Source: Bacillota bacterium (GTDB lineage: Bacteria > Bacillota > Limnochordia > Darwinibacteriales > DTU012). Taken from it: 64,000 bases of DNA. Within the stretch, counting starts at the first letter, position 1; every line of letters begins with the position of its first letter. The stretch covers positions 3,082-67,081 of the forward strand of contig JAAYMV010000014.1 of the NCBI GenBank assembly GCA_012521185.1, written 5' to 3'. Both the position numbers and the translations under genes were made by a program. Under the pieces are notes generated by a model that saw only the letters and a program-made list of their open reading frames with translations, was not told the origin of the DNA and searched no databases. This document shows positions 2,534 to 60,619 of this stretch, one piece after another.

Positions 2534-3802
2534 ATGAAACTTTTAGCCATTACATTATTTTTAGTTACTTATTTTTTAATGTTAGCTATTCCTAAGCACA
2601 AGACTTTCACGGTACTTGTTTCAGCAAGTATTTTTATTTTGCTTGGGATTATTCCTTTTTCAGATGCGCTAGCAGCAATTGATTGGAATGCGATTATGAT
2701 TATTGGGGGTACTATGGGAGTTGTATTCCTCTTTATTGAGTCGAGAATGCCTGCTTTATTGGGAGATTTGATTATTGAACGAACGCCGAATATTAAGTGG
2801 GCGATTGTCTTTTTAGCTTTGTTTTCAGGTTTTATTTCGGCATTTGTTGATAATGTGGCTACCGTTTTAATGTTAGCGCCAGTGGCGTTAAACATCTGTA
2901 AAAGATTAAATATCTCACCTGTGCCTAGTATCATTGCTATTGCTGTATCTTCGAACTTGCAGGGTGCCGCTACCTTAGTTGGTGATACCACTTCAATTCT
3001 TTTATCCGCCCACACTAAATTCAACTTCATGGATTTCTTTTTCTTTCAGGGGAAATTTAGTATCTTTTGGGTAGTACAAGCAGGAGCCCTTACTTCTGCA
3101 TTGGTCTTACTCTACTTGTTCAGAGACAAAAATCAGCCAATGAAGATCAGTGAGCGCACTGAAGTGAGAGACTATTTTCCCTCCTTTTTATTAGTCGGAG
3201 TGATTGTGCTACTAATTATTGCTTCATTTATTCCAAACCGACCAGAACTTACCAACGGTTTTATTTGTGTAGGCCTGTTCATTGTTGGATTAGTGCGTGA
3301 GCTTATAGTGAAACGAGATTTATCTGTAATAATCGAACCAATAAAAGAAATTGATTATCATACTTTATTACTGCTTACTGGATTATTTATTATTATCGGT
3401 GGTATTACTGAAGCAGGAGTAATTGATGATTTAAGCAGATTCTTGGCTCGTTTAGGTAAGGATAATTTGCTTACAATCTTCACAGTTATTGTCTGGTTTT
3501 CGGTATTTGTGTCGGCCTTTATCGATAACATTCCATATGTAGCTACTATGTTGCCGGTAGTAGGTGGAATTGCTAGTATCCTAAATGTAGAACCGTATTT
3601 ATTATATTTCGGTTTATTAGTAGGTGCTACTTTGGGTGGTAATCTAACTCCGATCGGTGCCTCAGCTAATATTGCAGCATTAGGAATTCTTCGCAAAGAA
3701 GGTTATACTGTTAGCACCAAGGAGTTTATGGCTATTGGTGTACCATTTACTTTGGTTGCTGTTACTACTGGATATTTATTGCTCTGGTTTTTATGGAGAT
3801 AA
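2534..3802 (+). CDS. ArsB/NhaD-superfamily anion permease (CitMHS/ArsB-like membrane transporter)
   Basis: 422 aa of polytopic membrane protein with a two-halves repeat pattern and Gly-rich TM segments. RBS AAAGGAG. Substrate not assignable. Confidence 0.55.
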   Translation: MKLLAITLFLVTYFLMLAIPKHKTFTVLVSASIFILLGIIPFSDALAAIDWNAIMIIGGTMGVVFLFIESRMPALLGDLIIERTPNIKWAIVFLALFSGFISAFVDNVATVLMLAPVALNICKRLNISPVPSIIAIAVSSNLQGAATLVGDTTSILLSAHTKFNFMDFFFFQGKFSIFWVVQAGALTSALVLLYLFRDKNQPMKISERTEVRDYFPSFLLVGVIVLLIIASFIPNRPELTNGFICVGLFIVGLVRELIVKRDLSVIIEPIKEIDYHTLLLLTGLFIIIGGITEAGVIDDLSRFLARLGKDNLLTIFTVIVWFSVFVSAFIDNIPYVATMLPVVGGIASILNVEPYLLYFGLLVGATLGGNLTPIGASANIAALGILRKEGYTVSTKEFMAIGVPFTLVAVTTGYLLLWFLWR

Positions 3803-3845: not shown

Positions 3846-4301
3846 TTATTCTAAGGTAATGTGTTCAACATGGATTTCGTCGCCCAAGGTTAGAATAGCT
3901 ATAGAAATTGGTAGGTTAAATCTTTTTGGGCCAGCACTGCCAGGATTAATATACCAGACTCCATTTCGTTCTTGTAAATCCGGTTTATGGGAATGCCCAT
4001 AAACTACAATGTCAGTTTCTGGTCCAGGAGAAATTAGCCGGCCAATGTCATGTAGAACTAAGATTGACCAATTATCAATAGTAATACGTTCTGTATCTTT
4101 TAAGTTTCTAGCCCATAATTCTACATCAACGTTGCCCCGAATAGCGACGGTTGGCGCTATTTCTTTCAAGTTATCCAAAACTTGAGCTGAGCCAAGATCA
4201 CCAGCATGGATAATTAAATCACAGTCTTTTAAATGTTCTACAGCTTCTGGTCTTACGAGTCCATGAGTATCAGAAATTAAGCCGATTCTTTTTTTACCCA
4301 T
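3846..4301 (-). CDS. YfcE-type metallophosphoesterase (phosphodiesterase)
   Basis: GLISDTHG, GDLG and GHSHKP metal-binding motifs. The likely start is the internal Met (MGKKRIGLISDTHG) preceded by GGGAGGG, rather than the longer ORF starting at 4322. Confidence 0.75.
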   Translation of the reverse strand: MGKKRIGLISDTHGLVRPEAVEHLKDCDLIIHAGDLGSAQVLDNLKEIAPTVAIRGNVDVELWARNLKDTERITIDNWSILVLHDIGRLISPGPETDIVVYGHSHKPDLQERNGVWYINPGSAGPKRFNLPISIAILTLGDEIHVEHITLE

Positions 4302-4375
4302 GAATATCCCTCCCAAAATCAATGTACGTTTATTTTTCTATTTTTACCCAAATTTTCCTGCGACAATAATTTCTG

Positions 4376-4404
4376 TTGTACCCCTTAGGGGTACATGTTA
4401 TAAT
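4376..4404 (+). promoter_or_regulatory. SigA-type promoter of copA with an embedded perfect 8-3-8 palindrome (candidate CsoR-type operator)
   Basis: -35 TTGTAC (4376-4381), 17-nt spacer, extended -10 TGTTATAAT (TATAAT 4399-4404). The palindrome TGTACCCC-TTA-GGGGTACA (4377-4395) fills the spacer. Confidence 0.6.
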
Positions 4405-4433
4405 AAAATAAATATTAGTCAGGAGGTTATCTA

Positions 4434-6695
4434 ATGTCTAAAGCAACCCAGTCGAAAAAAGTTGACCGAATAGATCTAAAAGTTGCTGGAATGACTTGTG
4501 CAGCTTGTTCTGCGAGGGTAGAACGAGTTTTAAATAGAAAAGATGGTGTGCTAAAGGCTAGCGTAAACTTAGCTACCGAGAAAGCTACCATCGAATATGA
4601 TCGGTCTTTGTTATCATTAGATGATTTTAAAGAAATTATTTCTGCAGCTGGTTATGAAGTAGTTGATGATCCAGTAGATCCAGTTACAGAAGATCAGCTT
4701 AAATATGAAAAAGCTCGTAATAAGATGTTGCTTGCTTGGAGCTTTACGATTCCAATCATGCTCTGGATGATTTGGCATATGTTTGTGGCTGGTGGTCATG
4801 ATTATGGTAAGAACGATGCCCCAGGATTATATGAAATTGGCAGCTTGTTATTGGCTACACCTGTGTTATTCTGGATTGGTTTAGATACATTGAAATCTGG
4901 CTGGAAATCATTAATTAGCGGTAATCCAAATATGGATTCTTTGATTATGTTGGGAACGATGGCAGCCTATTTAACAGGACCAGCTGTATTTTTTGTTCCC
5001 ATTGATAACTATTCTGGTGTATCTGCTATGATTATGGCATTCCACTTAACTGGAAGGTTTATAGAAGCTAAAGCTCGTGGTCGTGCATCGGACGCTATTA
5101 AAAAGCTTTTAGAATTAGGTGCTAAAACAGCGCGAGTATTAAGAGATGGAGAAGAAGTAGAGATACCTATCGAACGGTTGCAAGTTGGCGATATAATGGT
5201 AGTTCGACCTGGAGAGAAGATACCTACTGATGGAAAAATTGTCTGGGGTAGTTCCGCTATTGATGAATCAATGGCTACTGGCGAATCGATGCCTGTAACT
5301 AGAAAAGAAGGAGACCAAGTTATTGGTGCTACCATCAATCAAGAAGGTTTAATCCATATAGAGGCTACCAAAATTGGTAAAGACACTTTCTTGTCTCAAG
5401 TAGTAAAACTAGTAGAAGAATGTCAAGGCTCAAAAGTACCGATTCAAGAGTTTGCAGATAAAATTATTAGTTATTTTGTTCCAGTTGTCATTGGCGTTGC
5501 ACTAACCACATTTTTGCTTTGGACTGTCTTTCCTAATGCTATGATGCAAGTAGCTTTCACTTTGCAGCAATGGCTGCCCTGGGTAAATTTAAACTTAAGT
5601 CCTTTGACATTAGCCTTATATGCTACTATTGCGGTTTTAGTAATAGCTTGTCCTTGTGCCTTAGGCTTGGCGACTCCTACCGCTTTGATGGTTGGCAGTG
5701 GTTTAGGGGCAGAAAATGGAATTTTAATGCGCAGTGGTGAATCGATCCAAGTTTTGAAAGATGTAAAAATGGTCGTCTTTGATAAAACAGGTACCATTAC
5801 TAAGGGTTTACCAGAAGTTACTGATATAGTTGTTTTGGGAAATTTAGCGGAAAATGAAGTACTACGGTTAGCCGCATCTGTTGAAACTGGTTCCGAGCAT
5901 CCTCTAGCTAGGGCATTTGTGGCAAAAGCGCAAGACCAAGATTTGCAGTTAGTAACGCCAACTGATTTTCAATCGATTACTGGTCAGGGTGTAAAAGGCA
6001 TGGTTGGTGATGATTTGGTTTTAGTCGGTTCACGGAGATTAATGGAGAACCATCAAATCCAATTGGTCGGTGAAGAATCTTTGGCTGGTCTAGAAGCTCA
6101 AGGAAAGACCGCCATGTTAGTAGCCGTCAACCAGGAAATAGTGGGAATTGTGGCAGTCGCCGATACAGTAAAAGATGATTCCAAAGCTGCAATTAAGCAG
6201 CTTGCTGCTCTGGGAATTAAAACAGCTATGATTACCGGTGACAATCAAGCTACAGCTCGAGCTATTGCTCAACAGGTAGGAATTGATCATGTCGTGGCAG
6301 AAGTCTTACCTGATGGAAAGGTTAATGAAATTCGTCGATTACAGCAAGAATTAGGAGCAATTGCTTTTGTAGGTGATGGAATTAATGATGCTCCTGCTCT
6401 TACCCAAGCGGATGTAGGCATTGCAATTGGAACAGGTACAGACATTGCCATTGAATCTTCCGATGTTACCTTGGTGAGTGGCAATCTTAGTGGCGTTGTC
6501 AGCGCAGTAAGTTTATCCAAGGCTACTTTCCGGAAGATTCAAGAAAATCTATTCTGGGCCTTTTTCTATAATTTAATTGCTATCCCTTTGGCAGTTTTAG
6601 GCTTATTACATCCGGTAATAGCAGAAATAGCGATGGCGACAAGTTCGATTACGGTAGTTACTAATGCTAATTTATTACGTCGCAGCAAAATTTAA
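4434..6695 (+). CDS. copA: Copper-translocating P1B-type ATPase
   Basis: N-terminal HMA domain with [12 protein letters not shown], the CPC motif ([10 protein letters not shown]), the DKTGT phosphorylation site and [17 protein letters not shown]. Confidence 0.9.
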
Positions 6696-6777: not shown

Positions 6778-7125
6778 ATGAACGTTCTGTTTATTGTGCT
6801 CAATGAATTAGATTATCTCGACGATATTTTAGCCAAGTTTTTAGAAATCGGGGTTAAAGGCGCAACTATTTTAGATAGTCAAGGAATGGCTAGTGCCTTA
6901 TCAGGACAGGGCGATAATCTACCCTTATTCGGTTCTTTAATGAAATTAATGGATGGAGCTAGGCCACATAATAAGACGATTTTTACCTTAATAACGGAAG
7001 AAGAAATATTAAACCAAACAATTGCAGCAGTGCAAGAAATCTTAAGCAGCAGTAAGTCGGGGGGTGCTGGTGTAATGTTTACTTTACCAGTTAAAAGTGT
7101 ATGTTTTTTAAATCAAGAAGTGTAA
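6778..7125 (+). CDS. PII-like small signalling protein, DarA/PstA (DUF970)-like
   Basis: 115 aa. The N-terminus MNVLFIVLNELD...GVKGATIL and the C-terminus GGAGVMFTLPVK resemble the c-di-AMP receptor DarA (…GGATVFVMPVD). Called from memory of that family only. Confidence 0.4.
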   Translation: MNVLFIVLNELDYLDDILAKFLEIGVKGATILDSQGMASALSGQGDNLPLFGSLMKLMDGARPHNKTIFTLITEEEILNQTIAAVQEILSSSKSGGAGVMFTLPVKSVCFLNQEV

Positions 7126-7126
7126 A

Positions 7127-7153
7127 GTGACCAGAATTTTCTGGTCACTTTTT
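7127..7153 (+). terminator. Rho-independent terminator
   Basis: GTGACCAGAA-tttt-CTGGTCAC followed by TTTTT. Confidence 0.75.
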
Positions 7154-18583: not shown

Positions 18584-21268
18584 ATGAGTAGTAACCACAA
18601 AGTGTTAATACTTTTGTTGGCAGCGGTAGTTCTCTTGCTATTTGATGGAGTGGCAGTTGGGGTAAGTACTGATCAAGCTGAATTAGAGCAGTTAATTGAA
18701 GATTTAATAAGTAGTAATTTTCGAATCTCTACTTTAGCTAGCAATGCCTTAGTCGAATTAGGAGAAGAAGTCATTCCAGCAGTGGGAAAAGTAGTGCTGG
18801 AGAATTCTGCTTGGGATAATCGTTATAAGGCGATTACAGTTTTACGCCGAATCGGATCAGCCGAAGGAATTCCAATTTTATTGAATGCTTTAACTGATTC
18901 AGAGGATCGGGTACGTTCCCACGCTCGCACGTCGCTAGAGGAGATTGTGGCTCAAAGCGATCAAGTTAAGGTTATCGAATTAGTTGAACCTTATTTGGTA
19001 GCCAACAATTTAAACCTGCGAATAATAGCAGCAGACTTGCTGAGTGCTGCAGGATGGGAAAGTGAGGATTTTGCTAATGTTTTTATCAAATCCTTGTCAG
19101 CTAGTGATCCAATAATAAGGGCAATTGCTCTTGAACGCCTTGGGGAAATAGCTCATCAAGAAGCCGCGTATTTTGCTGAAGTTAGTCCCTTGGTATATGA
19201 TTCTCACATTGCAGTTCAAAAGGAAGCGGTTAGGACGCTGGTAAAACTTGGTTTTACTAGTGAGCAAATTGTGGAACTGGTTTTTGCTGGATTCATGAGT
19301 GGACAATTAGATAAAAATGTTGTGCCAGAGCTATTAGGTCAAATGGTTTTAGGCGAACTGAAAAATGCTAAGGCGTTAATTGATGTAATTACTAATACTC
19401 AGAACAGTAAAGAATGGCGTCAATTAGCCTTTGCAGCCTTAGATCTAGTGGTACCCGAAATGGAATATCATTTAGAACGAGGTTTAGTAGCCATTAAAGC
19501 AGCTGAAGGTGTCTATTTAAGCTGGCGATTGTTGGGTACAGAGCCTTATGATTTAGCTTTTAATGTTTATCGTGATGGACAAAAAATAAATGATCAGCCA
19601 ATAACCAGTAGTACTAATTATCAAGATCCACTTGGTACTTTAAATTCGAAGTATCAAGTTAAAGCAGTAATTGCTGACCAAGAAGTTTCTAGTTCTAAAG
19701 AAGTTACTGTTTGGGAAAAAGATTATCTGGCTATTCCTTTACAGAAACCTGAAGGTGGAATAACGCCAGATGGGGTTGCTTATAATTATCGGGCAAATGA
19801 TGCTAGTGCTGCTGATTTAGATGGTGATGGAGAATACGAGATCATTTTAAAATGGGATCCGTCAAATTCTAAAGATAACTCGCAAAGTGGATATACAGGT
19901 AATGTATATATCGACGCCTATAAATTAGATGGTACCTTTATGTGGCGCATAGATCTAGGGCGTAATATTCGAGCTGGTGCCCATTATACTCAATTTATGG
20001 TTTATGATTTAGATGGTGATGGGCGAGCTGAGCTTGTAATGAAAACAGCAGATGGAACCGTCGATGGGTTAGGTAATGTAATCGGTGATCCTAGTGCAGA
20101 TCACAGGAATAGCAGCGGCTATATTTTATCTGGACCAGAATATTTAACTGTTTTTGATGGTTTAACTGGAGCAGCCCTAGCTACAATTGACTATGAACCG
20201 CCAAGAGGTAATGTTTCTGCTTGGGGCGATAATTATGGTAATCGTGTTGATCGTTTCTTAGCGGGAATAGCTTATTTAGATGGTGTTAGACCAAGTGTGA
20301 TTATGGCTCGTGGTTATTATACTAGAACAGTAATAGTCGCCTACAATTGGCGTGATGGTAAATTAGAACATTTATGGACCTTTGATAGTGCTCATCCAGG
20401 ATATCAAGCATATGCTGGTCAAGGCAATCACCAATTATCAATTGCTGATGTAAATAATGATGGACGGGATGAAATAATCTATGGTGCGATGACTATAAAC
20501 CACGATGGAACTCCTTTATATAACACTGGTTTGGGTCATGGCGATGCTTTGCATGTGGGTGATTTCGATCCTGAGCGACCTGGTTTAGAGGTTTTTGGTG
20601 TGCATGAGAATTATCCGAACCCAGCAGGTGTTAACTTACGTGATGCTAGAACTGGCGAGGTAATTTGGGGAATTGCCACCGATTATGATGTGGGTCGGGG
20701 TTTGTCTGCTAATGTTGATCCAAACCATCCTGGAAATGAAGTTTGGGCTTCCCGGACACCGTTGTTTAACGCCAAAGGCGAGGTCATTAGTAATACAGCT
20801 CCTTCATCAATTAATCATGCTATTTGGTGGACAGGAGATTTATTGAGAGAATTGCTTGATCATGATCGTAGTCGTGGGAATGTAGGTAAAATTGACAAAT
20901 GGGACTGGGAAAACCAACGAACGGTTAATATTGCTACTTTCGAGGGAACTTCATCAAATAATGATACGAAAGGTAATCCATGCTTACAGGCGGATTTATT
21001 TGGTGATTGGCGTGAAGAAGTAGTTTTTAGAGCTGTTGACAGCAGTGAATTAAGAATATATTCAACAACTTATCCGACTGAACATAGGCTATATACCTTA
21101 ATGCACGACCGAATGTATCGAGTTGCTATTGCTTGGCAAAACGTAGCTTATAACCAGCCGCCACATCCAAGTTTCTATATTGGACCTGATATGGAGCGGC
21201 AAGAATTTAACATTGGTAATGCTTACACAGTGTTAGAGCAATATGGTGATGAATTAAGTAAGTGGTAG
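18584..21268 (+). CDS. Secreted rhamnogalacturonan lyase (PL11) with N-terminal HEAT-like module, paralogue 3
   Basis: Same architecture, 894 aa with a slightly shorter N-terminal module. RBS AAGGGAG. Confidence 0.8.
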   Translation: MSSNHKVLILLLAAVVLLLFDGVAVGVSTDQAELEQLIEDLISSNFRISTLASNALVELGEEVIPAVGKVVLENSAWDNRYKAITVLRRIGSAEGIPILLNALTDSEDRVRSHARTSLEEIVAQSDQVKVIELVEPYLVANNLNLRIIAADLLSAAGWESEDFANVFIKSLSASDPIIRAIALERLGEIAHQEAAYFAEVSPLVYDSHIAVQKEAVRTLVKLGFTSEQIVELVFAGFMSGQLDKNVVPELLGQMVLGELKNAKALIDVITNTQNSKEWRQLAFAALDLVVPEMEYHLERGLVAIKAAEGVYLSWRLLGTEPYDLAFNVYRDGQKINDQPITSSTNYQDPLGTLNSKYQVKAVIADQEVSSSKEVTVWEKDYLAIPLQKPEGGITPDGVAYNYRANDASAADLDGDGEYEIILKWDPSNSKDNSQSGYTGNVYIDAYKLDGTFMWRIDLGRNIRAGAHYTQFMVYDLDGDGRAELVMKTADGTVDGLGNVIGDPSADHRNSSGYILSGPEYLTVFDGLTGAALATIDYEPPRGNVSAWGDNYGNRVDRFLAGIAYLDGVRPSVIMARGYYTRTVIVAYNWRDGKLEHLWTFDSAHPGYQAYAGQGNHQLSIADVNNDGRDEIIYGAMTINHDGTPLYNTGLGHGDALHVGDFDPERPGLEVFGVHENYPNPAGVNLRDARTGEVIWGIATDYDVGRGLSANVDPNHPGNEVWASRTPLFNAKGEVISNTAPSSINHAIWWTGDLLRELLDHDRSRGNVGKIDKWDWENQRTVNIATFEGTSSNNDTKGNPCLQADLFGDWREEVVFRAVDSSELRIYSTTYPTEHRLYTLMHDRMYRVAIAWQNVAYNQPPHPSFYIGPDMERQEFNIGNAYTVLEQYGDELSKW

Positions 21269-58593: not shown

Positions 58594-58798
58594 TGAAAGA
58601 TACTCCTTCTATGTTAGGATGACTAATCAAGTTAGAAAACAATCTTTTAATGTATAAATTCCATATTCATAACATAAGTCCTTCCAGAATTCTATCTTTT
58701 TTCTTGAAAATGTGGAGCTAGGAAGGTTAATGAAAAAGTTTGTATAATAAAATTATTAAAGTAAAATTATAACATTGTTGTAAAGGAGGAAAAGGTTG

Positions 58799-60619
58799 AT
58801 GCAATCTAAGCTAGGAGTTGTTTCAATTATATTTTTGCTGTTATGTTCAGGCATTGTTAGTGCGCAGATTTCCGAGCAGCAGTTGGTGGATTTACTGATT
58901 ACTTTAGGTGATTCAAATCCAATGGTAGCCTGGGAAGCTCATCGTAACTTACAGAAACTTGCTCCGGAGTATCTTACCTTAAATGAAGTTGCGTTAGAAA
59001 AGGTATTGCCTAAGTTGGCAGATCCAACTGTCAGAGATAATGTGATCAATTTGTTTCTTCGTGCACCTGAGAGTGGTGTTAGCTTATTGATAAACACGAT
59101 CAAAGATTCGGAGACTTCCATATTACTTAAAGATCAAGCTATTCAGTTACTAGGTAAAATGACTGGAGAAACACAGCAGATAGTTGCTGTTTTAGTTGAA
59201 TTGTTAGAAAATGAGCAAACGCCATACTTAATAAGAGTTTCTGCTAGCGATATGTTAGCTAATTTGGAAGTAGCTGATCAATCTGAATTGGTAACCAGAG
59301 CTTTAGAGGAGGCAAAGTATCTTAACCAATACATATATAATGAGCAAATTGTTTTTCGGATTGATAATAATTTAGCAGAACCACTTGATAATCATCTAGT
59401 TGTTGGGGTATTAGCAATCCCTGAATTAGATATTAAATTAGAAGATTTAGCGGTAGTAGATGATCAAGGAAATCGGATTCAAGCTAGAATTAGAGAGCTA
59501 GCTAGTTGGTCAAGTGGCAGTCCACGGGTGGTGGAGATTTCTTTAGCAGTTAGTTTAGATGCTCATGGCGTAGCTACCTATTATTTGCAGTTGAGTGGTA
59601 CTACTGGATTTGCATCAAATATTAACAATAATGCAGTTAGTTTTAGTTTCTTTGGCGAAGGTATTTCAGGGTTTACAGATTTAGATCTACCATATCAGGA
59701 AGGGTGGAGTAATTTGATGATTGTAGCTAAAGATGGAAGTGGCCAGTTTGATAGTGTGCAAGCCGCTATCGACGCAGTTCCTGAAAACAACAAAGAGCGA
59801 GTTTATATTTATATTAAAAATGGTGTTTATAAAGAAAAGATTACTGTACCAGAAAATAAACCGTTCATTAGTCTAATTGGAGAAAGTAGTGAAGGTACCA
59901 TTTTAACCTATGATGATAGTGCTCGGACCATAGGCCCAGATGGCAAAGAATTAGGAACTACAGGAAGTTCTAGTTTTTTTGCTAAAGCAGATGATTTTAC
60001 GGCTGAAAATATTACCTTCCAGAATACCGCTGGCATGTATGCAGGGCAAGCAGTAGCAATTAGAACCTACGGTGATCGATGTATATTTAACAATTGTCGT
60101 TTCCTTGGTTATCAAGATACTTTGTATGTTACAGGTGGGCGACAATATTTTGTTAACTGCTATATTAAAGGTGATGTGGATTTTATTTTTGGCGATGCAA
60201 CTGCGGTTTTTGAAAACTGCGATATTGTGGCAACTAACAGACGAGAAGGTGGATATATCACAGCTGCATCTACCCCTGAAACATCAGAGTTTGGTTATTT
60301 AATAATCAATAGCCGTTTAATTGGGGAAGGTGAAGCCAATAAATTCTATTTAGGTCGTCCTTGGCGTCCTTATGGTGCAGTAGCAATTATTAATTCTTGG
60401 ATTGGAGATCATATTCGCCCAGAAGGGTGGCATAATTGGAGTAATCCAGCTAATGAGCAAACAGCTCGCTATGTTGAATATAATAATTCCGGTCCTGGAG
60501 CTGCTACTGAGCGAAGAGTTCCTTGGTCTACAGTATTAACAGCTGAAGAGGCAGCGAGATATACTGTGGAAAATGTTTTAAGAGGTAATGATGGGTGGAA
60601 TCCTAAATTGCGTGATTAG
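58799..60619 (+). CDS. Secreted pectinesterase (CE8) with N-terminal HEAT-like α-helical module related to that of the PL11 paralogues
   Basis: Signal peptide, ~160-aa helical module and a middle β-rich segment. CE8 motifs: GSGQFDSVQAAIDAVP, QAVAIR, GYQDTLY, DFIFG, LGRPW. Confidence 0.85.
   Translation: MQSKLGVVSIIFLLLCSGIVSAQISEQQLVDLLITLGDSNPMVAWEAHRNLQKLAPEYLTLNEVALEKVLPKLADPTVRDNVINLFLRAPESGVSLLINTIKDSETSILLKDQAIQLLGKMTGETQQIVAVLVELLENEQTPYLIRVSASDMLANLEVADQSELVTRALEEAKYLNQYIYNEQIVFRIDNNLAEPLDNHLVVGVLAIPELDIKLEDLAVVDDQGNRIQARIRELASWSSGSPRVVEISLAVSLDAHGVATYYLQLSGTTGFASNINNNAVSFSFFGEGISGFTDLDLPYQEGWSNLMIVAKDGSGQFDSVQAAIDAVPENNKERVYIYIKNGVYKEKITVPENKPFISLIGESSEGTILTYDDSARTIGPDGKELGTTGSSSFFAKADDFTAENITFQNTAGMYAGQAVAIRTYGDRCIFNNCRFLGYQDTLYVTGGRQYFVNCYIKGDVDFIFGDATAVFENCDIVATNRREGGYITAASTPETSEFGYLIINSRLIGEGEANKFYLGRPWRPYGAVAIINSWIGDHIRPEGWHNWSNPANEQTARYVEYNNSGPGAATERRVPWSTVLTAEEAARYTVENVLRGNDGWNPKLRD

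Follow-up and report, generated by a model that had tools for sequence, protein, structure and literature searches.

A candidate CsoR-type operator overlapping the predicted copA promoter of an uncultured Bacillota bacterium

The copA gene of an uncultured biogas-reactor bacterium is preceded by a perfect inverted repeat of the 8-3-8 type, TGTACCCC-TTA-GGGGTACA, at positions 4377–4395 of the window (the whole stretch of DNA analysed here, 64 kb long). We consider it likely that a Cu(I)-sensing repressor of the CsoR family uses this palindrome as a type-2 operator and that the operator overlaps the copA promoter. What was observed is the sequence of the palindrome and its position, the match to the CsoR consensus, the conservation in a relative and further occurrences near cop and csoR genes elsewhere. 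Since the palindrome is a near-perfect copy of a known CsoR site, the locus is best read as an ordinary copper switch, probably a system of a known kind whose repressor gene is unlinked.

Results

The copA gene (4434–6695, + strand) encodes a 753-aa protein identified as a Cu(I)-exporting P1B-1 ATPase by its motifs, its Pfam domains and its match to NCBIfam TIGR01511 (accession NLM24738.1, MAG locus-tag prefix GX208). The protein displays a single N-terminal GMTCAAC metal-binding domain, the CPC, YN(x)4P, MxxSS and DKTGT motifs and the HMA, E1-E2_ATPase and Hydrolase domains of Pfam, and scores 574 bits against TIGR01511 (copper-translocating P-type ATPase; cut-off 397). Identical copA loci are present in biogas-fermenter and related assemblies. 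The palindrome lies inside the 132-bp intergenic region (4302–4433) that separates copA from a divergent YfcE-family phosphodiesterase gene (3846–4301, − strand). On the other side, 83 bp after copA, a gene on the + strand (6778–7125) encodes a 115-aa PII-fold protein: its match to Pfam P-II (E = 3.9e-4) falls below the cut-off, it has no NCBIfam match, and its AlphaFold2 model (pLDDT 68) yields Foldseek matches to PII and SbtB with a TM of ~0.55–0.6. copA and the PII-like gene are probably co-transcribed, and the unit is closed by an intrinsic-terminator-like hairpin with a T-run, called by the terminator scan at 7124–7151 (+ strand). Thus, a perfect 8-3-8 palindrome flanked by a phosphoesterase gene upstream and a PII-like gene downstream, as described in an earlier, sequence-only reading of this DNA, is borne out on each count, the palindrome being present as a single copy in the window.

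[quoted passage not shown] The core of the palindrome, TACCCC-TTA-GGGGTA (4379–4393, no strand assigned), conforms to this definition, with two 4-bp G/C tracts, three bases between them and TA repeats 11 bp apart. It also contains the 5'-TAC-X9-GTA-3' dyad, in the form TAC (4379–4381)-CCCTTAGGG-GTA (4391–4393); the same dyad recurs in the operators of S. lividans, S. aureus, L. monocytogenes and B. subtilis, and the CsoR of S. lividans requires it to bind (PMC3902906). Moreover, the core, TACCCCTTAGGGGTA, agrees at 14 of the 14 specified positions with TACCCCTNAGGGGTA, the central part of the streptomycete CsoR consensus ATATACCCCTNAGGGGTATAT (Tan et al. 2014, PMC3902906), and it sits at a promoter location, the site being 39 bp 5' of the ATG of the TIGR01511 Cu-ATPase gene. 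The CsoR-type character that the sequence-only reading had ascribed to the core is therefore supported by both the published type-2 definition and the consensus.

Palindromy by itself is unexceptional in this DNA. By chance, one repeat with 8-bp arms and a loop of fixed length would be expected in roughly every 64 kb. Ten perfect inverted repeats with loops of 3–5 nt and arms of at least 8 bp were counted in the window, and several of them resemble terminators located at the 3' ends of genes (e.g. 7128, 21263, 36272 and 41545). These figures are what speaks for a chance palindrome devoid of any regulatory role; yet what lies beyond chance is the specific sequence at its specific place. The full palindrome is unique in the window, even when up to three mismatches are allowed. 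TACCC-N5-GGGTA matches exactly once in the 64 kb, against no match in 100 dinucleotide-preserving shuffles, and its sole one-mismatch match (54767) falls inside a coding region and within chance expectation. A site that matches the 14-position published consensus exactly, that is placed at the promoter of the window's only copper gene and whose arms are kept in a relative with a different upstream gene (see below) has a negligible probability of being accidental; by consensus match, location and conservation taken together, chance is excluded for practical purposes.

The candidate site can be compared with several characterised ones. The S. lividans CsoR operators (csoR, copZA1 and copZA2) have in common with it two 4-bp G tracts and the TAC-X9-GTA dyad, and the streptomycete consensus agrees with it at all specified positions of the central 15 bp. 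In addition, the core ends in GTAC on either side and so contains an overlapping "external" GTA/TAC dyad like that of copZA1, where the external dyad has been linked to a high-affinity phase (PMC3902906); one may speculate that it matters for binding here as well. The two cases differ in their flanks (TG/CA here, ATA/TAT in the streptomycete consensus) and in their setting: the host here is not an actinomycete but belongs to a low-GC Bacillota MAG, with a copA gene lacking copZ and an operator that is still a candidate. The B. subtilis copZA operator, TACCCTACGGGGGTA as quoted in the sequence-only reading (Fig. 2B, PMC3902906), provides a Firmicute example of a type-2 G/C-tract site. It, too, sits at the promoter of an operon for Cu(I) efflux, where Cu(I) lifts the repression, but it is a pseudopalindrome, whereas the site described here is a perfect palindrome. 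B. subtilis has csoR beside copZA as well as a gene for the CopZ chaperone, whereas neither csoR nor copZ occurs within ~78 kb here. S. aureus CsoR binds PcopA (ATACCtataGGGGGTAC) and PcopX in trans, including horizontally acquired promoters, as established by EMSA (PMC5947656); PcopA has the same architecture as our site, but the S. aureus sites are imperfect with binding shown by EMSA, whereas ours is perfect with binding presumed by analogy. In M. tuberculosis, the CsoR paralogue RicR represses five loci via TACCC...GGGTA-type palindromes, e.g. TACCCCGCTGGGTA at the ricR promoter (PMC3944814). That regulon differs from the present case in belonging to another phylum and in comprising metallothionein, multicopper oxidase and other genes rather than copA. 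Finally, the CopY/CopR cop box, TACANNTGTA, for which an extended consensus has been published (PMC7253601), is the site of copper-responsive repressors at Firmicute cop promoters. As the sequence-only reading had noted, the palindrome is no CopY box: neither TACANNTGTA nor KACANNTGTA matches either strand of 4302–4433, and, unlike in the cop box, the TGTA and TACA bases occur here in reverse order, 11 bp apart.

The stretch 4371–4436 reads TTCTG-TTGTAC-CCCTTAGGGGTACATGT-TATAAT-AAAATAAATATTAGTC-AGGAGG-TTATCTA-ATG. The top-scoring sigma-A-like combination in the 132-bp intergenic region consists of TTGTAC, 17 nt and TATAAT, with a TG at 4396–4397: (i) the candidate −35, TTGTAC (4376–4381, + strand), matches TTGACA at three of six positions and is overlapped by the left palindrome arm; (ii) TATAAT (4399–4404) is a perfect −10, here part of the extended −10 TGTTATAAT (TG-N-TATAAT, 4396–4404, + strand). 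The ribosome-binding site AGGAGG (4421–4426, + strand) follows, 7 nt before the copA ATG. All three elements are kept in the closest relative, L163, the extended −10 as TGGTATAAT with the same spacing. The promoter is thus predicted from sequence and from its conservation in L163, and transcription of copA would start at ~4410. A generic consensus scan missed this promoter because its −35 matches only three of six positions, and listed the weaker TTTACC-16-AATAAT (4343–4370) instead.

The palindrome covers positions 2–6 of the −35 hexamer (five of six) and 14 of the 17 spacer bases of the predicted promoter, and its end, at 4395, directly abuts the TG (4396) of the extended −10. This geometry calls for some corrections to the sequence-only reading. 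The promoter had been called near-consensus, which applies to its perfect, extended −10 but not to its weak −35. The palindrome had been said to fill the spacer exactly; in fact, 19 bp cannot fit into 17 nt, and the −35 is overlapped too. The imprecise wording leaves the idea of repression by occlusion unchanged, and that idea fits the predicted site, which overlaps both the −35 hexamer and the spacer. A MerR/CueR-type activator site consists of a dyad in an over-long spacer of 19–20 bp, usually with a merR-family gene nearby; with a spacer of 17 bp, this type of site was rejected here.

The 11 strain-level copies of the locus (>99.8% identical) are uninformative because they are identical or nearly so, which leaves one informative relative, represented by L163/L164 (P0156). 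Its CopA is 78% identical and its locus is syntenic apart from two insertions, a MurJ-like gene 5' of copA and, in L163, a ZIP transporter gene that lies on the opposite strand and separates copA from the PII-like gene. Its copA upstream region, TTGTACCCCATGGGGGTATGTGGTATAAT, has retained the −35 hexamer, the TACCCC/GGGGTA arms, the TGnTATAAT and all spacings, whereas the central TTA has become ATG and the outer CA has become TG. In this single informative relative, the arms are therefore more constrained than the centre, as would be predicted for a dyad that is bound by a protein and whose centre is free to vary. As a caveat, conservation between the window and L163 is fairly good over the entire stretch from the −35 to the ATG and not confined to the palindrome, which makes the footprint suggestive but not specific. 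L165 (67% identical) and L166 (65%), the CopA relatives next in line, have no such site upstream of copA.

The same comparison bears on the idea that the palindrome acts as RNA, either as a 5' stabiliser or attenuator on a transcript initiated at TTTACC-16-AATAAT or as a bidirectional terminator. As RNA, the 8-bp stem would be stable (centroid −12.6 kcal/mol), the upstream promoter-like match ends at 4370, and at two other loci (L012 and L042) the identical palindrome is clearly a terminator hairpin. But the much better TGTTATAAT promoter puts the predicted start downstream of the palindrome, the z-score of the fold is only −1.6, and no Rfam family matches at gathering or relaxed thresholds. 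In L163, no compensating change accompanies the loss of the outer pairs (CA to TG), whereas the TACCCC/GGGGTA arms stay identical, which disfavours an RNA stem. An intrinsic terminator was rejected: no T-run follows the palindrome on either strand, the terminator scan did not call it, and, the flanking genes being divergent, there is no transcript to terminate at this place. Altogether, a function as an RNA hairpin seems highly improbable.

The CsoR-operator reading is strengthened by the recurrence of the motif next to copper genes. Most of the metagenomic CopA loci at 58–62% identity (n = 79) stem from unrelated high-GC organisms and lack the motif. The exceptions include four loci with an exact TACCC-N5-GGGTA directly 5' of copA (L084, L085, L106 and L109) and two Halanaerobiales-type csoR-copA loci with the exact motif ~50 bp 5' of csoR (L091 and L092); the CsoR proteins of the exceptional loci show the Cys...His...Cys pattern. 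In L091/L092 and L109, the site either directly adjoins a TG-extended −10 or lies between −35 and −10: L109 has TTGACA-TACCCCTGGGGGGTA-TG-TTATAT and GTACCCCAGGGGGGTA-TGGTATAAT, and L091 has GGGGTA-TGGTATAT, the site being likewise located between the −35 and the extended −10.

Some metagenomic loci deserve a separate remark. L109 is a compact multi-promoter copper cluster, with two CsoR-type sites, TACCCCTGGGGGGTA (1041–1055) and TACCCCAGGGGGGTA (3030–3044). The genes enclosed by these sites, just 5' of copA, code for a polytopic membrane protein of 414 aa, a CopZ-like HMA protein and a protein resembling thioredoxin; no csoR homologue was detected in the 11.5 kb covered. Three low-GC loci with the gene order copZ...copA-csoR carry a different motif (L087 4920–4960, L093 2380–2410 and L123 5385–5415): after their copZ promoter, TTGACA-17-TTATTATA, comes ATACCC(C/T)C(T)TACA(T/C)GTATA, which combines a single C tract with a TACA/GTAT repeat and is unlike the two-tract site; the downstream-encoded CsoR may use it as a variant operator.

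Scanning 185,579 species genomes for TGTACCCC-N3-GGGGTACA (16 fixed bases) returned 72 loci, the genome under study not being among them. A csoR, copZ or copA homologue lies at most 400 bp away in 17 of the 72 and within ~3 kb in six more; as a rough estimate, ~0.1% of random genomic positions are that near such genes. The cop-linked loci come mostly from Mycobacterium, Streptomyces, Kocuria and Geodermatophilus, the exact motif being found 5' of CsoR-family genes in many mycobacteria, and a second site of the ATACCCC...GGGGTAT type often lies alongside. The 16 fixed bases have other roles in other genomes, namely the terminator hairpins of L012 and L042, dispersed repeats and a structured Paenibacillus element, so the sequence alone is not diagnostic.

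Some of these other occurrences are of interest in their own right. In Paenibacillus spp. (L047 2387–2705, L058 4534–4852, L070 1709–2027, L072 2101–2419 and L077 4078–4396), the palindrome belongs to a conserved element of ~170 nt, CTCTACCCAC...CCTCCCTGCTAGGGAGG...CCCCGGAA...GAGYCG-TGTACCCC-NNN-GGGGTACA-ACTCTTGTTCGAGC, which is present in two to three copies per genome and corresponds to no Rfam family at the gathering score; its GAGCCG-hairpin-ACTC part presumably recalls domain V of group II introns. The Bacteroidetes MAG Cfx3-03 (one 5.3-Mb contig) contains four copies of the palindrome (L015, L016, L073 and L080), one of them with the identical TTA centre, flanked by inverted arrays of short CTGTACCCGTTC- or CTATACCCGTTC-like repeats; they look like a dispersed repeat family and not like a cop operator. 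In Caldilineaceae MAGs (L013, L045, L048 and L076, with L051 and L061 in reverse orientation), the palindrome is part of a stretch that several genomes of this family have kept, reading CGGCGGAG-TGTACCCCGTCGGGGTACA-AGCRCTGAACACCAGC..., and no cop or csoR homologue was detected at these loci. In five species of Methylobacterium / Methylorubrum (L036, L041, L065, L069 and L078), TGTACCCC(C)ATGGGGGTACA and its flanks are conserved ~2.8 kb from a copA-cueR cluster, too far away for a copA promoter site.

The repressor gene was sought in the window and around it. Searching the window by tblastn with CsoR, CopY, CueR and CopZ sequences revealed no credible regulator: the only CueR-like match (E = 0.022) sits inside the ORF of a 921-aa lyase, and the only CopZ-like match is the N-terminus of CopA itself, the window containing no copZ gene. 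A profile built from 22 CsoR sequences and run at maximum sensitivity against the window ORFs of at least 40 aa gave a best E of 3.3, and a Pfam scan of ten small window ORFs showed BirA as the sole DNA-binding protein. Loci with identical proteins made it possible to add ~14 kb of flanking DNA, bringing the total to ~78 kb; no PF02583, CopY or MerR gene is listed in the 5.5 kb to the left of the window or in the 8.5 kb to its right. The 18.9-kb contig of the L163 relative has no CsoR-family gene either. A protein search with a Halanaerobiales CsoR gave, among the best 120 of 7615 matches, ten plausible MAG-derived ones, none with an accession from the source MAG. An abundant CsoR candidate, P0140, was set aside because it comes from other samples; its csoR gene, in a Clostridia MAG, is surrounded by suf, NifU and isocitrate-dehydrogenase-type genes, and the gene list for the 3 kb around it shows no cop gene. 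The statement of the sequence-only reading that no csoR, copY or copZ gene lies near copA is thus confirmed by the tblastn and profile searches of the window. Its corollary, a regulator acting in trans, gains support from the fact that no regulator gene, csoR included, was found in the window or in the ~14 kb of flanks. We infer that a CsoR-family repressor is encoded elsewhere in the genome, outside the ~78 kb examined.

These searches can also be read differently, namely as pointing to a lineage that lacks csoR and in which an unrecognised copper or redox sensor has converged on the G/C-tract dyad or has taken it over. No csoR gene was found in the ~78 kb around copA or on the contig of the relative, and few members of the lineage have been sampled, so that the closest CopA relatives share only 78%, 67% and 65% identity. 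Nevertheless, this alternative is unlikely: the core equals the CsoR consensus at every specified base, the same motif adjoins csoR genes in other loci, and unlinked csoR genes, such as that of P0140, are common. The intergenic region contains no CopY box, and its 17-bp spacer is unlike the long MerR-type spacer. In its strongest form, this alternative would make the organism a member of a deep-branching uncultured lineage devoid of any CsoR-family gene, with an unrecognised regulator at TACCCC-N3-GGGGTA; a related conjecture casts the PII-fold protein as a nucleotide-sensing partner that gates CopA. Both are very unlikely in our view. Gating of this kind has parallels in the action of GlnK on AmtB and of SbtB on SbtA. 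If csoR turned out to be absent from the complete genome, which we rate as unlikely, the site would be a lead to a new copper regulator.

Discussion

Under the preferred reading, a CsoR-type switch with an unlinked repressor gene, copA expression would be controlled as follows. At low copper, apo-CsoR, encoded outside the ~78 kb examined and acting in trans, would occupy the TACCCC-N3-GGGGTA dyad, presumably as two tetramers, the stoichiometry per site in characterised systems (PMC3902906). With most of the −35 and the spacer as far as the TG taken up by the site, the bound repressor would block access of RNA polymerase. Binding of Cu(I) at the Cys-His-Cys site of CsoR would then take the protein off the DNA, in keeping with the finding that Cu(I)-CsoR does not bind (PMC3902906). 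After release, copA, and probably the PII-like gene too, would be transcribed and Cu(I) would be pumped out. The identity of the repressor, its existence in this genome and the response to copper are thus put forward by analogy with the systems described above.

Regulation in trans is normal for the CsoR family, as established for S. lividans, where CsoR controls two unlinked copZA operons besides its own gene, for S. aureus and for RicR (PMC3902906, PMC5947656, PMC3944814). The present locus adds another cop promoter with an unlinked repressor gene, as well as a perfectly symmetric type-2 site with an overlapping external GTA/TAC dyad. In practical terms, copA of this biogas-reactor bacterium can be annotated as copper-inducible via a CsoR-type switch, and a csoR gene, perhaps together with further sites, is predicted elsewhere in the genome; beyond annotation, this matters little.

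A few further observations concern the genes around copA. The L163 counterpart of the PII-fold gene lies at 13338–13685, and in both genomes the next genes after it encode a bacteriohemerythrin and CheX. Further along the window, three tandem paralogues of ~900 aa (13015–21268; HEAT_2, RGI_lyase and FG-GAP) form a rhamnogalacturonan-lyase-like array and, with a pectinesterase gene at 58796–60619, suggest a pectin-degrading lifestyle.
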